From assembly GCA_947084835.1 (NCBI GenBank), contig CAMTUB010000008.1, forward strand, positions 1,524 to 65,523: a DNA stretch of 64,000 bases. Reading direction: 5' to 3'. Below are positions 30,893-33,944 of this stretch, piece after piece (the first letter of the stretch is position 1; each line of letters starts with the position of its first letter). Origin of the DNA: an uncultured Bacteroidota bacterium (lineage in GTDB: Bacteria > Bacteroidota > Bacteroidia > UBA7662 > CAMTUB01). The translations under genes and the position numbers were made by a program. The notes under the pieces were generated by a model. The model was not told where the DNA came from, searched no databases, and worked only from the letters and a program-made list of their open reading frames with translations.

Positions 30893-31804
30893 ATGGTTGA
30901 TATCACCTTTAAAAGCAATACGCTCCGCATTGCAATTGCAGAAGCTACTATCTTGGCGAGTTTGCCTGCTACCATAGATGCTATAAAAAATAAAACCGTA
31001 CCCAAAGGCGATGTGCTGGAATGCGCGCGTGTAGCTGCGCTTTTCGGGGTAAAACGCACCAGCGATATGATACCTGATTGCCACCCCATGCCTGTAGAAA
31101 AAACAGAAGTTCGGTACGATATTTTGGATAAAAGCATACGAATAGAAGTGGAAGTGCATACCATTTACAAAACCGGAGTAGAGGTTGAAGCCATGCATGG
31201 GGCATCGGTAGCCGCTATTACTATGTACGACATGCTTAAACCGATTGACAAAGGCGTTGAGATTTGCAACATCCGTTTGGTGGAGAAAAAAGGAGGCAAA
31301 TCTGATTTCGCAAATGCGTTCAGAACCGACTTAACGGCTGCGGTTATTGTTTGCTCCGATAGCATTTCTGCAGGTAAAAAACAGGATAGAGCTGGAAAAG
31401 CCATCATCGAAAAACTTGAAAAATCGAAAGTTGCGGTAACCAAGTATTTTGTGATTCCGGATAACATAGAAGCCATACAAAACAACGTGCGTATGCTTTG
31501 CGACCAAGGCATAAACATGGTAATACTTACAGGCGGCACTGGTTTATCGTACACCGATGTTACCCCAGAAGCTTTAAAGCCACTTATTGACCGCGAAATT
31601 CCGGGAATTTCAGAAGCCATACGCAACTACGGGCAAGAAAGAACTCCATATTCTATGCTTTCGCGCAGTGTTGCTGGGCTTTGCAACAAAACACTGATTT
31701 TAGCACTGCCAGGCTCTACCCGCGGTGCCAGCGAATCTATGGATGCGGTGTTTCCATCGGTGTTGCATTTATTCAAAATTATGGGTGGCGGTAGCCACGA
31801 TTAA
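30893..31804 (+). CDS. moaC: Bifunctional cyclic pyranopterin monophosphate synthase accessory protein MoaC fused to a MoaB/MogA domain
   Basis: N-terminal half is MoaC-like (KGDVLECARVAALFGVKRTSDMIPDCHP). C-terminal half is MogA/MoaB-like (TGGTGLSYTDVTPEA ... LPGS). Confidence 0.85.
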   Translation: MVDITFKSNTLRIAIAEATILASLPATIDAIKNKTVPKGDVLECARVAALFGVKRTSDMIPDCHPMPVEKTEVRYDILDKSIRIEVEVHTIYKTGVEVEAMHGASVAAITMYDMLKPIDKGVEICNIRLVEKKGGKSDFANAFRTDLTAAVIVCSDSISAGKKQDRAGKAIIEKLEKSKVAVTKYFVIPDNIEAIQNNVRMLCDQGINMVILTGGTGLSYTDVTPEALKPLIDREIPGISEAIRNYGQERTPYSMLSRSVAGLCNKTLILALPGSTRGASESMDAVFPSVLHLFKIMGGGSHD

Positions 31805-31999
31805 AAATAAACCAATTGGTTTACCAACAGTATATGTTAACCGAAGATGAAAATGAAAGGCGCAGAGGGGCAAAATCATAATAGAACAAAATAAACAAAT
31901 TGGTTTACCAACCGTACAATTTAATCGAATATGAAAATAAAATTGTTGAGGGATAATAAAGCCCCAGAGGGGCGAAATATCAATAGAACAAAATAAACA

Positions 32000-32675
32000 A
32001 ATTCGCATCAAGCTCCATACGAGCGGAATAAATTACAAAAACAAAACAACAAACACATAATTATTAATTGTTGATTTTGTTGAATAATATCGCTCCTACG
32101 GAGCTGAATACATTTACTATTCAATCATTCTATTATTATGTTGCTCCTACGGAGCTGAAAAAACCAAATCTTGTTCCGTTCTATTATGATATTGCTCCTA
32201 CGGAGCTATATTTCGACCTAGAAAAACAAATAGACCAATTGGTTTACAAACTTTACAATTTAACCGAAGATGAAAATAAAATTGTTGAGGGAAAATAAAG
32301 CCCCAGAGGGGTGAAATATCAATAGAACAAAATAAAACAAACTCGCACCAAGCTCCGTAGGAGCGGAATAAATTACAAAAACAAAACAACAAATACATAA
32401 ATATTAAATGTTGACTTTGTGGTATAATATCGCTCCTACGGAGCTGATTACATTTCATATTCAATCATTCTATTATTATGTTGCTCCTACGGAGCTGAAA
32501 AAACCAAATCTTGTTCCGTTCTATTATGATGTTGCTCCTACGGAGCTATATTTAAAAATAGAAAAACAGACCAATTGGTTTACCAACTGTACGAGTTAAC
32601 CGAAGAAGAAAATAAAATTGTGGGCGAAAATAAAGCCCCAGAGAGGCAAAATCATAATAGATAATAATTTTGTTT
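32000..32675 (+). repeat. Tandem direct duplication, period 340 bp (two copies, high identity by eye)
   Basis: Hairpins at 32012, 32092, 32143 and 32194 recur at 32352, 32432, 32483 and 32534, exactly +340. The flanking text is collinear, with a small deletion near 32565. Confidence 0.85.
32212..32298 (+). pseudogene. Isolated 3-prime-terminal remnant resembling the C-terminal tail of restriction-modification/N6-methyltransferase proteins
   Basis: Translates as DLEKQIDQLVYKLYNLTEDENKIVEGK*. This resembles the xIDxLVYxLYGLTEEEIxIVEG tail seen on Eco57I/PglX-type enzymes. No upstream catalytic domain. Related decayed copies lie at about 31809, 31896, 32569 and 32669. Confidence 0.35.
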
Positions 32676-32962
32676 ACCAACTATACAATTTAACCGAAGA
32701 TGAAATTAAAAATGAAGAAGAAAATGAAAGCTCCAGCGGGGCAAAATCATAATAGAAAACAGAAGAAGAAATTAAAATTGCAGACGAAAACAAAGCCCCA
32801 GCGGGGCAAAATATCAATAGAAAATAAAAGCAATACCCATCCAGCTCCGTAGGAGCGGAATAAATTACAAAAACAAAAAACCTAACCCGCAGTTTAAACC
32901 GTGGGCTATAATCAACCTCATCAATCCAAATAAATGCAATTTCAAACATGCAATCAAAACAG

Positions 32963-32990
32963 AAAAGAGGAGCCAATTGGCTCCTCTTTT
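32963..32990 (-). terminator. Rho-independent, bidirectional-looking terminator downstream of the RIC gene
   Basis: Perfect palindrome AAAAGAGGAGCC-AATT-GGCTCCTCTTTT, with an A-run and a T-run on either side. Confidence 0.7.
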
Positions 32991-33023: not shown

Positions 33024-33944
33024 TTATTGAGCTAAATTTCTGAATTTAACAAAAAGTAAATTGTTTTCGAGGTTGATGTGCATATGCAAATCGGCTTCTA
33101 GTTCTTTAAGCGCATTATATGCAATTACATAACTGTTGCATGCACCATTTGGTGTTTTGTAATTATCGGTAAGGCCACTCATGGCGCGTAGCGCTTCGCC
33201 AGCTCCATCGTGGTCCATTTCCATTTGCGCTAAAATTTCTTGGATATGCGGAGGCTTTTCGCCTGTTTTCTCAAAATGCTTAATTATCGGGAACAACACT
33301 TGCTCTTCTGCTCCCATGTGGTTGGTAAGTTCTAGCATTAAGTCGTCAAAAATATTGAAAACATCAATGGTTTCGGGGTGCTCAATGCCATGCACACGCG
33401 ATACCTTATTCAACAACTGATGTATGGCAGGCATGTTTTCTTTCAAAAACTTATGGTGCGTATCTACAATATAATCGCATAAGAAAGCCAAGTTCCAGTT
33501 AGTAGGGTTATCGCTTTTTAGGTCGTTTACTTTGTCCAGTGCGGCAAGTTCATCGCGTAGTGCAAACACATCTACATCTCTTTCAATGCATGCTTTTTCT
33601 ACCGATTTTTTACCACCGCAGCAATAATCAATGCCGTGTTTTCCAAAAACCATGGCTTTACGAATATCGCTAGCAGCAATTTCGCCAACTGTTTCTGCTT
33701 TTATGTCTTTGCTTAATTTCGAAACCCTTACTAAAGATGTTTCAGGCAACCTTTCGATAAAAGTCCATTTAAACACCGGACCATGTGCCTCGATTAGCGT
33801 ATAAAAAAGGGCTTTGCCATCGCCCGAAATGAAAATATCAAACGATTCTCCGGTTTTTATTTCTGAAAAAAGTTGAAGAATTTTATCTTGTTGATCTGAA
33901 ACACTCATTTGAATAAACGAGCTTGATTCTTTTAAAACAGTCAT
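33024..33944 (-). CDS. ric: Repair-of-iron-centres di-iron protein (ScdA/YtfE/DnrN family) with an N-terminal DUF2249-like extension
   Basis: ScdA_N motif HGIDYCCGG. Hemerythrin-like His/Glu motifs (HHKFLKE, HMGAEEQVLFP, EMDHD). About 85 extra N-terminal residues. Confidence 0.8.
   Translation of the reverse strand: MTVLKESSSFIQMSVSDQQDKILQLFSEIKTGESFDIFISGDGKALFYTLIEAHGPVFKWTFIERLPETSLVRVSKLSKDIKAETVGEIAASDIRKAMVFGKHGIDYCCGGKKSVEKACIERDVDVFALRDELAALDKVNDLKSDNPTNWNLAFLCDYIVDTHHKFLKENMPAIHQLLNKVSRVHGIEHPETIDVFNIFDDLMLELTNHMGAEEQVLFPIIKHFEKTGEKPPHIQEILAQMEMDHDGAGEALRAMSGLTDNYKTPNGACNSYVIAYNALKELEADLHMHINLENNLLFVKFRNLAQ

Follow-up and report, generated by a model that had tools for sequence, protein, structure and literature searches.

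The 1.15-kb stretch that separates a moaC/mog gene from a RIC gene in an uncultured Bacteroidota bacterium is probably the non-coding debris of a transposase module. This Bacteroidota module, Y1a, comprises a Y1 gene, its own 13-nt hairpin repeats (REPs) and a copy of a type IIG gene tail. The array described here lacks the type IIG gene, retains only short ghosts of the Y1 ORF and has a 340-bp unit duplicated in tandem. The array lies in a window of 64,000 nt, by which we mean the whole stretch of DNA analysed. L-numbers (L004, L017, L170 etc.) denote related loci that were compared; C2 and C5 are contigs of the source genome.

A gene-less array between convergent genes

The array sits between convergent genes. 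On its left is a moaC/mog fusion gene (30893-31804, plus strand), taken from the ORF list and assigned by Pfam matches to MoaC and MoCF_biosynth in an identical protein. On its right is a RIC/ScdA gene (33024-33944, minus strand) with Pfam domains ScdA_N and Hemerythrin. The fusion gene is outside the element. So is a hairpin with a 12-bp stem (32963-32990), which resembles a bidirectional terminator of the convergent genes. The sequence and the ORF list contain no long ORF from the moaC/mog stop codon (31802-31804) to the RIC gene. Among the array's small ORFs, the largest (76, 63, 80, 88 and 100 aa) matched no Pfam family, and the small ORFs are not kept between tandem copies. For instance, the 76-aa ORF at 32068-32298 is frameshifted in the second tandem copy. 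The original observation that the stretch holds no credible gene agrees with both the ORF list and Pfam. No recombinase ORF is listed inside the array or in its immediate flanks.

Both array junctions recur in independent Logan assemblies. The left junction matched at 168/169 bases in one assembly and the right junction at 175/175 in three. Logan contigs break inside repeats, so the internal repeat number rests on one assembly. Sequencing runs ERR3478703, ERR3478706 and ERR3478709 of the source sample contain the flanks.

As a control set we used 80 loci (620 kb) with moaC-mog homologues, 55-71% identical and without synteny with RIC. No relatives were found at 90% identity. The control set contained 0 tails and 0 REPs. 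The array appears not to be ancestral at the site in these 80 loci, and the comparison shows no more than this.

REP-like hairpins and their Y1 gene

Fifteen hairpins in both orientations had been counted in the array, and our count is the same. Eleven match GCYCC-NNN-GGRGC and four (31859, 32012, 32300 and 32635) are decayed. Six are forward and follow tails, three (REP2) precede ghosts and six are inverted. The forward hairpins, on the plus strand, were located by sequence inspection, pattern search or a flank-anchored list. They lie at 31859-31871 (GGCGC-AGA-GGGGC, decayed, then flank AAAATCATAATAGAA; sequence and flank-anchored list), 31961-31973 (GCCCC-AGA-GGGGC, 1 nt past a relic stop codon; pattern search), 32300-32312 (GCCCC-AGA-GGGGT; flank-anchored list), 32635-32647 (GCCCC-AGA-GAGGC, decayed; sequence), 32730-32742 (GCTCC-AGC-GGGGC; pattern search) and 32795-32807 (GCCCC-AGC-GGGGC; pattern search). 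REP2 is the hairpin found ahead of the Y1 start in intact modules. Its plus-strand copies are at 32012-32024 (GCTCC-ATA-CGAGC, decayed; repeat family D4), 32352-32364 (GCTCC-GTA-GGAGC) and 32844-32856, the last two from the pattern search. The inverted hairpins occupy the minus strand as two sets of three. One set (GCTCC-TAC-GGAGC) starts at 32092, 32143 and 32194, with a period of 51, and spans 32092-32206; the other starts at 32432, 32483 and 32534 and spans 32432-32546.

All five stem pairs vary on both sides, and the observed values were reached by 0/500 shuffles. Hence, the hairpins are structurally constrained, as had been argued from the stem changes. GCTCC and GCCCC were then thought to be compensatory variants. 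Pairing is indeed kept, but the two are not merely variants; they are orientation-specific classes. Inverted hairpins have GCTCC in 11/11 cases, and forward hairpins mostly have GCCCC. The REP has a consensus 5′ flank of AAA, and GTAG appears only where the loop meets the stem in GCTCC-GTA-GGAGC variants.

The hairpin with its flank occurs 19 times in the 2.2 Mb genome, confined to two loci, and the total number of repeats at these loci is about 36. All REP copies lie in two arrays of this 2.2-Mb draft genome, whose contig ends could conceal more. The only other array, at C2:48250-49916, surrounds an intact 153-aa Y1 gene and has the same REPs and tails. The repeat unit is therefore not unique to its locus, with relatives on C2 and in other genomes.

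The Y1a protein scored 95.9 bits against Pfam Y1_Tnp and 68 bits against the NCBIfam IS200 model (NF033573; cut-off 55). Its score against the TnpA_REP/RAYT model NF047646 was 25.7 bits, below the cut-off of 80. We compared its motifs with the text of PMC6006769, which defines TnpA_Y1 subclass 1.2 by DH[IV]H, WQ and Y---Q--HH in about 148 aa. The Y1a motifs DHLH, WQ (as HWQ) and YINNQEMHH are those of subclass 1.2. The array hairpins thus appear to be REP-like repeats cognate to an IS200-like HUH/Y1 gene of this subclass. The genome has one Y1a copy, and its three other stand-alone Y1 genes are only 32-40% identical to it. Across orders, Y1 proteins are 76-84% identical and single-copy per lineage. 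In a plasmid collection, only two distant Y1 matches were found, both on megaplasmids.

Relics of type IIG gene tails

A DNA profile (nhmmer) identified five tail copies in the window, with E values of 5.5e-19 to 7.6e-8 and spans of 31803-31880, 31883-31972, 32219-32310, 32560-32641 and 32672-32741. It also matches (E 2e-12) the only intact type IIG gene of the genome that has the tail, at the 3′ end of that gene. A protein profile was built from seven intact type IIG C-termini only and searched against 84,500 six-frame genome peptides. Its matches were the intact type IIG gene, the C2 copies and, in the window, five fragments (E 2e-14 to 7e-4); apart from these, no peptide among the 84,500 fell below E = 1.

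All relics are on the plus strand; E values are given for nhmmer and then for the protein profile. T1 (31805-31858; 1.7e-12, 7e-4) has an internal deletion of ~18 nt, and T2 lies at 31889-31960 (1.3e-14, 1e-4). T3 (32215-32298; 5.5e-19, 2.3e-14) is the best preserved and reads EKQIDQLVYKLYNLTEDENKIVEGK before its stop. T4 (32556-32634; 2.7e-16, 5e-10) is frameshifted by a 4-nt deletion, and T5 (32669-32729; 7.6e-8, 6e-6) lacks its 5′ end. The original prediction had five to six copies. Five are significant; the sixth, T6 (32758-32794), is a 3′ half only, recognised as repeat family D2 (83% to the reference copy), and is not significant alone (protein profile E 4.1).

The encoded peptide had been likened to the C-terminus of type IIG and BREX PglX methyltransferases. 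The type IIG part is borne out by the profile search and by 95/120 homologues of one type IIG enzyme that end in the tail motif. The PglX part is not: the tail profile matched no PDB chain at E <= 1, leaving the likeness to PglX/MmeI structures unsupported. In L008, L011, L017, L020 and L176, the tail ends a type IIG ORF with MmeI/Eco57I domains. Copies thus do occur at the 3′ ends of intact methyltransferase genes in relatives. There, too, a hairpin follows the tail at once, the REP starting 1-5 nt past the stop codon. Beside the window array, the ORF list has no ORF with MmeI/Eco57I methyltransferase domains that ends in the tail.

Ghosts of the Y1 gene and the tandem unit

Tandem Repeats Finder reported a period of 340 with 2.3 copies and 89% matches at 31889-32661 (plus strand, one assembly), in agreement with the 340-bp duplication first noticed in the sequence. 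One unit consists of a tail, a REP, REP2, a ghost and three inverted REPs.

Ghosts were compared with Y1 genes by short local matches, global alignment to the full gene being too noisy. Ghost 1 (32025-32091, plus strand) contains the Y1 leader, ~45 nt, and then the final Y1 codons (TTGAATAA). It matches the L017 Y1 leader up to the ATG at 14/14 bases, and the L011 Y1 3′ end with the first inverted REP at 26/26. With REP2 on one side and the first inverted REP on the other, ghost 2 (32365-32431, plus strand) makes up a long, REPIN-like hairpin. Here, a 16-nt perfect inverted repeat (I17/I20) surrounds a 65-nt ghost, and the DNA fold has an energy of -26.8 kcal/mol (z -7.9). Ghost 3 (32857-32883, plus strand) retains the Y1 leader only, and the array ends there. 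Perfect inverted REPs flank the ghosts, which makes them REPIN-like. Judged by these matches, the ghost of the 340-bp unit is a Y1 ORF deleted to ~65 nt, with the leader to the ATG and the last two codons kept. The 340-bp unit is a Y1a module minus its Y1 ORF.

The module in relatives and its link to type IIG genes

The module always has the order forward REPs, Y1, inverted REPs, tail relic, forward REPs, and this applies to Alkalitalea, Hydrotalea, Niabella and many MAGs. One cultured strain whose module is intact is Alkalitalea saponilacus DSM 24412. Hairpins flank Y1 in the source genome and in most close homologues, and in C2, L002, L008, L011 and L017 the gene lies between inverted copies of its own palindrome. 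Hairpins at the upstream module end are of the GCCCC type and forward; those at the downstream end are GCTCC and inverted. The downstream end also bears a copy of the last ~25 codons of a type IIG gene.

In about half of the closest relatives, the module is immediately 3′ of an intact type IIG gene and always co-oriented with it. Tail matches in Y1 loci are on the Y1 strand in 27/27 cases, all in loci of the closest homologues (>=77% identity). An intact or cut type IIG ORF ending in the tail is directly upstream of Y1 in L008, L010, L011, L017, L020 and L021. PADLOC and Pfam confirmed the type IIG assignment of the five scanned, all but the 240-aa fragment L010. These genes represent at least three lineages, 25-37% identical, while the Y1 proteins behind them share 77-82% identity with the query Y1. 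When sampling started from type IIG genes instead, 3/6 independent homologues had a subclass-1.2 Y1 gene or the REP immediately behind the tail.

The tail marks the joint between gene and module. Between L020 and L021, nucleotide identity rises from ~45% over the gene bodies to 80% where the tail begins, and reaches 93-100% over the stretch that starts at acggatgacgaaat and includes the stop codon and the REPs. Between-module similarity thus begins inside the tail. Hence, the last ~10 codons of the gene, its stop codon and the first REP come from the module. The opposite module end bears the 5′ part of a tail.

Neither array in the source genome adjoins a type IIG gene or body fragment, so the window array's origin behind an RM gene is drawn from relatives only. 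The compared loci included no empty/occupied pair of orthologous loci that would show insertion at the tail directly. Where other Y1 lineages adjoin type IIG genes (L170 and L173), a second tail is missing downstream, and the use of the tail as a module end may be peculiar to Y1a. The C5 type IIG gene was compared with its L008 orthologue as an empty site, and their flanks proved unrelated. L124, another candidate, was ruled out as its type IIG gene is truncated.

Proposed origin of the array

From its homology to TnpA of IS608 and to TnpA_REP, the Y1 enzyme is most likely to bind REP hairpins in single-stranded DNA and to nick them. We propose that the module would enter type IIG genes by recombination within the conserved tail, without disrupting the RM reading frame. 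Arrays could then grow and decay through repeated rounds of entry, through deletions and through unequal crossing-over, the last between tails or between REPs. The tails are broken at different points (L007, L010, L022, T5 and T6 in the window), which does not fit one precise enzymatic cut. Therefore, homologous recombination is favoured over Y1 for the tail join. A single precise cleavage site in the tail, such as TTAC, was rejected because the break points vary and the codon is often TAT. At present, the array is most likely inert except for effects of secondary structure; the C2 copy of Y1 could still act on it in trans.

Two origins had been offered for the array. The first, an amplified element with a captured gene end and a hairpin, is largely right and missed the link to a transposase. 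The second was a recombination hot spot littered with the 3′ stubs of RM or defence cassettes. This is partly right, in that the tail joins the module to type IIG genes of at least three lineages. The spaces between tails, however, are emptied Y1 modules and not RM or defence cassettes.

We consider it unlikely that the last ~25 codons of type IIG genes are a dedicated attachment site of subclass-1.2 Y1/REP modules. On this view the modules would come and go as circles, their joined ends would restore the full tail and the host gene would stay unbroken throughout. If so, the HUH enzyme or the hairpins would drive integron-like stacking of cassettes behind restriction genes. In-frame Y1 domains within type IIG genes would be a fused form of the partnership.

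Alternative explanations

The strongest alternative, possible and in our view distinctly less probable than debris of the Y1a module, is that type IIG 3′ ends simply recombine. Any cassette could then stack there; the Y1/REP module would be a mere passenger and its enzyme uninvolved. The variable break points are consistent with this. So is L020, where the host tail recurs on the far side of the insert; the two tails share 53/54 nt and then diverge, the shape seen in PMC2853133. In L017, an AAA_14 gene and a TonB-receptor/AhpC pair likewise lie between tail-plus-REP joints. However, the tail relic travels with Y1a even where there is no type IIG gene (C2, L004, L007, L013 and L015), and REPs are present at every joint. 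Moreover, type IIG tails are directly followed by subclass-1.2 Y1 genes of three lineages, with a separate palindrome for each lineage, far above expectation for one cassette family. Behind the type IIG gene of L175 lie RES and RhuM genes, without further tails.

It is improbable that Y1 and its hairpins are functional accessories of type IIG RM loci, for example in control or diversification of the enzyme gene or in action on foreign single-stranded DNA. The array would then be the remnant of a lost operon. Such a role would suit the neighbourhood, which recurs in about half of the loci whether sampled from Y1 or from type IIG genes and is co-oriented in every case, and the conservation of single-copy Y1 proteins across orders. 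In the source genome, a different Y1 domain is even fused in frame within a type IIG gene, whose insert-free orthologue, L008, has a Y1a module at its tail. Against this, many Y1a modules are far from any RM gene and no PADLOC model matched Y1. Ghosts, tandem amplification and contig breaks resemble the dynamics of selfish repeats.

A working RNA or regulatory element (a bank of terminators or insulators, or small RNAs) or a small protein is very unlikely. The array has 12 terminator-like sites where 1.6 are expected, several on the minus strand at REPs, and its place between convergent genes would be apt. However, the REP stems are only 5 bp and the 80 moaC-mog loci have no homologous array at the site. 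Rfam 15 returned nothing at or near the gathering threshold for the window and six related loci; the best score was 29.5 bits against 47, and Acido-Lenti-1 scored 18.9 bits against 37. The small-protein version is opposed by small ORFs that match no family and change between tandem copies.

Finally, an ordinary REP cluster whose RM likeness is a chance product of AT-rich sequence is refuted, short though the peptide is and A-rich the DNA, by the specificity of the DNA and protein profiles, the 95/120 homologues ending in the motif and the use of the same DNA as the real 3′ end of intact type IIG genes.

Relation to known systems

REP and REPIN repeats are believed to have originated as flanking sequences of IS200-like genes. 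Integrative elements such as tRNA-gene islands insert at a gene's 3′ end, which they restore, and integron cassettes carry attC.

As in REPtrons and RAYT-REP/BIME systems (Nunvar 2010, PMC2817692; Bertels and Rainey 2011, PMC3116915; Di Nocera 2013, PMC3733652), a single-copy Y1 HUH gene is bracketed by its own short, GC-rich palindrome in inverted copies. Elsewhere, these palindromes form clusters that lack the gene and in which orientation alternates. Two inverted palindromes with a short spacer fold into a long hairpin, as in REPINs. Unlike RAYTs, the Y1a protein is class 1 (IS200-like) and not class 2. Its ~36 repeats are at two loci, whereas RAYT-REP repeats are dispersed over tens to hundreds of extragenic sites, and the array REPs have no 5′ GTAG or CGTC tag. 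Unlike in REPtrons and REPINs, the repeat unit includes the relic of a protein-coding gene end, and in the spacer of the doublet, unlike that of a REPIN, both ends of the deleted Y1 ORF, its start and its stop, can still be recognised.

TnpA_Y1 subclass 1.2 was listed without terminal hairpins or REPs (Quentin, Siguier, Chandler, Fichant 2018, PMC6006769). Y1a agrees with this subclass in its DHxH, WQ and Y---Q--HH motifs, ~150 aa length, low copy number and Bacteroidota host. It differs in being bracketed by conserved hairpins, often behind a type IIG gene. The hairpins are a difference from the published description and not from the protein family. With IS200/IS605 elements, Y1a shares the catalytic domain and internally deleted, non-autonomous copies; its orientation-specific stem types may correspond to the distinct left-end and right-end hairpins that are recognised on one strand in those elements. 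In contrast to them, it has neither multiple identical copies nor tnpB, its end hairpins are inverted and not direct, and its arrays are tandem and not dispersed insertions.

Insertion with long target duplication is known at RM loci (Furuta et al. 2010, PMC2853133). There, a direct repeat of >30 bp of the target flanks the insert, and the 53/54-nt repeat around the L020 insert may be of this kind. Here, however, the insert is a Y1/REP module and not an RM system, and the target is always the same conserved gene end. Like elements that integrate at gene 3′ ends, the module brings a substitute 3′ end and would leave its target gene intact; as with these and with integron cassettes, successive entries would give arrays with a repeated joint. 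It differs from both in having no linked tyrosine or serine integrase, a coding joint of ~75 nt and variable break points. The link between Y1 and type IIG tails is not mentioned in the literature that we searched.

An intermediate becomes visible on the route from transposase gene to repeat doublet, with a spacer that still holds the start and stop of the deleted gene. Subclass 1.2, published as repeat-less, gains cognate hairpins of two orientation-specific types. The conserved 3′ end of type IIG restriction genes, to which the modules are tied, appears to be a preferred site. A site beside an addictive, horizontally mobile gene could explain the persistence and spread of the module, as well as the accumulation of tail relics at the ends of RM genes. 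For annotation, such arrays break assemblies and give spurious small ORFs (recurrent 'APTEL' peptides) and stray methyltransferase-like fragments.

A second palindrome family

The array also contains a decayed copy of a second palindrome family, AGCCCACGGTTTAAACCGTGGGCTATA, at 32884-32910 (24/27 bases match). In other genomes this family accompanies another Y1 lineage, and in L006 and L170 it adjoins the Y1b gene.

The array hairpins belong to a Y1 gene

Between the moaC/mog stop codon (31802-31804) and the terminator of RIC, a convergent gene (terminator at 32963-32990), there is no credible gene. ORFs do not exceed 100 aa, and Pfam returned no match for the small ORFs of the array (31809-32960). 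The 76-aa ORF named in the original prediction has a frameshift in the second tandem copy. The array begins 1-5 nt past the moaC/mog stop codon. As described before, it contains 15 hairpins (REPs), each with a 5-bp stem and a 3-nt loop; 11 fit GCYCC-NNN-GGRGC and the remaining four are decayed. The 340-bp unit was also recovered, in 2.3 tandem copies of 89% identity, an internal copy number that rests on one assembly because Logan contigs all stop within repeats. Junctions with unique DNA were reproduced independently by Logan assemblies, for 168/169 bases on the left and, in three runs, for 175/175 bases on the right.

Across the genome there are 19 copies of the hairpin joined to its conserved 3' flank, RAHATNNYAATAGAA, at two places only: the window array and positions 48250-49916 of contig C2. 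The C2 array encloses an intact 153-aa Y1 (IS200-like HUH) gene, of the lineage Y1a. Its protein, our query Y1, scores 95.9 bits against Pfam Y1_Tnp and 68 bits against the NCBIfam IS200/IS605 transposase (cut-off 55). The RAYT model gives just 25.7 bits (cut-off 80). Length and motifs (DHLH, WQ, YINNQEMHH) are those of TnpA_Y1 subclass 1.2. Homologues number thousands, and the best, 76-84% identical, are spread across several Bacteroidota orders. We conclude that the array hairpins belong to a Y1 gene.

Both REP/RAYT systems and TnpA_Y1 subclass 1.2 are already known. The latter is low-copy, occurs in Bacteroidetes and Cyanobacteria and generally lacks REPs and terminal secondary structures (Quentin et al. 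2018, PMC6006769). Conversely, the hairpins here are cognate and orientation-specific. No such hairpins were found for subclass 1.2 in the literature searched.

Y1 modules share one architecture

We examined loci around Y1 homologues from named genomes and MAGs. All have the same order: forward REPs (mostly with GCCCC stems), Y1, one to three inverted REPs (GCTCC-TAC-GGAGC), a relic of the last ~25 codons of a type IIG restriction-modification (RM) gene, hereafter the tail, and forward REPs. Tail matches are all on the Y1 strand (27/27) and confined to loci of the closest Y1 homologues (at least 77% identity). As a control, 80 moaC-mog homologue loci (620 kb) gave no tail matches.

For stem analysis, REPs were picked by flank only, ignoring pairing. 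Five Watson-Crick pairs are present in 43 of 63, with at least six distinct fully paired stems. All five pairs have two-sided changes, at a level reached by 0/500 shuffles. Judged by this covariation, REP stems are shown to be under structural constraint. Stem type goes with orientation: inverted REPs have GCTCC (11/11), while forward REPs have GCCCC (20/32) or, less often, GCTCC (4/32). Given this dependence, the two stem variants originally reported look like differentiated module ends. Pure REP arrays of 24-nt period are present at L010:905-1160 (~10 inverted REPs) and L011:6555-6830 (at least nine forward REPs). Both contain runs of N; hence, REPs break assemblies.

The array contains emptied Y1 modules

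The 340-bp unit comprises a tail, a forward REP, REP2 (the hairpin preceding the Y1 start), a ~65-nt spacer and three inverted REPs. The left part of the spacer corresponds to the Y1 leader, as far as the ATG (14/14 with L017, 12/12 with C2). The right part corresponds to the last Y1 codons, stop codon and first inverted REP (26/26 with L011). On these matches, the spacer is a Y1 gene that has lost its ORF, hereafter a ghost. The ghost is bounded by a perfect 16-nt inverted repeat, made up of REP2 and the first inverted REP, and folds as a single long hairpin (-26.8 kcal/mol, z -7.9). Hence, it is REPIN-like: in REPINs, too, an inverted REP doublet forms one long hairpin. Ghosts of this kind are also present in C2, L007, L010, L017 and L022, along with truncated Y1 copies and tandem units. 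The literature searched held no ghosts keeping gene start and stop. Toward the array edges, units are reduced to a tail and one REP.

Tail copies match type IIG C-termini

For a protein profile, only C-termini were used, taken from seven intact type IIG enzymes; the search covered the full six-frame set of 84,500 peptides from the 2.2-Mb genome. In agreement with the proposed resemblance to RM methyltransferase C-termini, the profile matched the genome's single intact type IIG gene with a tail, five array fragments and the C2 copies, and no other peptide with E < 1. A tail DNA profile likewise found five array copies (E 5.5e-19 to 7.6e-8). The sixth copy originally suggested is a 3' half only. 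No type IIG gene body lies near the window array. The IDQLVY codons at each relic start form a perfect 14-16-nt palindrome, TAAACCAATTGGTTTA (for example, window 31808-31823), broken in several intact type IIG genes by CAAATGG (coding QM). Tail relics may be under selection at the DNA level.

Type IIG genes of several lineages are followed by Y1 modules

Immediately 5' of Y1, and co-oriented with it, is a long ORF with the tail at its end in five loci: L008, L011, L017 (Alkalitalea saponilacus), L020 and L021. A 240-aa tail-ending fragment has this position in L010. The first REP starts 1-5 nt past the stop codon of these ORFs. The long ORFs are type IIG enzymes (PADLOC and Pfam; the scan covered these five, the L010 fragment aside). 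They represent at least three lineages, with 25-37% identity outside the tail, and the adjacent Y1 proteins are 77-82% identical to the query.

L020 and L021 share ~45% nucleotide identity over their gene bodies. Identity climbs to 80% at the tail start and to 93-100% from 'acggatgacgaaat' onward, stop codon and REPs included. This alignment shows the sequence common to both modules starting inside the tail. In L020, 53/54 nt are common to the tail upstream of the module and the downstream relic, after which the two diverge; the relic C-terminus is AIIENS, as in the nearest homologue, P0126. Partial tails also adjoin unrelated DNA: 3' parts at the left module end (L006, L010) and 5' parts at the right (L007, L010, L022). 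Hence, the module ends are two halves of a tail, with break points that are not fixed.

The tail motif ends 95 of 120 homologues of the L020 enzyme. Six independent homologue genes were inspected, and in three the tail is followed at once by a subclass-1.2 module. P0126 has a second Y1 lineage there, with long GGTTTAAACC-centred palindromes, and P0139 a third, with GACCC-stem REPs. In P0137, a GCCCC-type REP lies 3 nt past the stop codon, where the contig stops. No tie of Y1 modules to the type IIG tail was found in published work searched. The tail may instead be a general cassette joint and Y1 only one passenger cassette, a view that fits the module's shape, an insertion with long target duplication in the terms of Furuta et al. 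2010 (PMC2853133), but not readily the recurrence of three Y1 lineages at the type IIG tail or the tails that accompany Y1a also away from RM genes.

For a Y1 module with its own tail, recombination within the tail would join it to a type IIG gene. The module would provide a substitute gene end, so that the RM gene is kept intact. Further entries, unequal crossing-over and deletion could then generate arrays. Because tail break points vary, host homologous recombination is favoured for the join itself. By analogy with its relatives, the Y1 enzyme would target the hairpins in DNA that is single-stranded; acting in trans, the C2 copy could do so at the window array as well. As evolutionary rationale rather than result, RM genes are costly to lose and often transferred; a small element would be well sheltered next to one.

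In-frame inserts in type IIG genes

The genome's only intact tail-bearing type IIG gene (C5:122676-126170, minus strand; 1160 aa) has a Y1_Tnp domain fused in frame at aa 591-701 (Pfam 54 bits), with methyltransferase motif I on one side and NPPY on the other. Precisely this 175-aa segment is missing from the L008 orthologue (75% and 67% identity either side), whose 3' end instead adjoins the Y1a module. Such a pair could point to a functional partnership of Y1 and type IIG RM, which we consider unlikely. A DUF559 (Vsr-like endonuclease) insert occupies the same Eco57I-domain loop in the L011 enzyme (L011:1601-5932, aa 713-817) and in P0131, P0134, P0136 and P0138. This loop is apparently a hot spot of in-frame domain insertion. 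Behind another type IIG gene (L175:6897-8991) are a RES-domain gene, with a 4-nt overlap with the stop codon, and a RhuM gene, with no further tail copies. RES-domain and RhuM genes are typical defence-island passengers.

Other Y1 genes and a second palindrome family

Rfam and Pfam searches gave no support for the array as an RNA gene or coding function. REP2 with its flank (window 32352-32375 and 32844-32867 (minus)) weakly matches Rfam Acido-Lenti-1 at model positions 22-45 only; at 18.9 bits, the match is far under the gathering score of 37. The array closes with a Y1 leader, then a decayed copy of a second palindrome family (32884-32910). At L006:1230-2070 and L170:6830-7120, this family, AGCCCACGGTTTAAACCGTGGGCT, neighbours Y1 of a second subclass-1.2 lineage (YIKNQKxHH). 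The genome has five Y1 sequences in total; besides Y1a, the stand-alone genes are C5:8362-8802, C17:28275-28697 and C40:10324-10722, 32-40% identical to Y1a. On contig C14, the second family occurs twice (16358 and 16521) within a repeat of ~160 nt, where the stem has changed in a compensatory way, from GCCCA/TGGGC to GTCCA/TGGAC.
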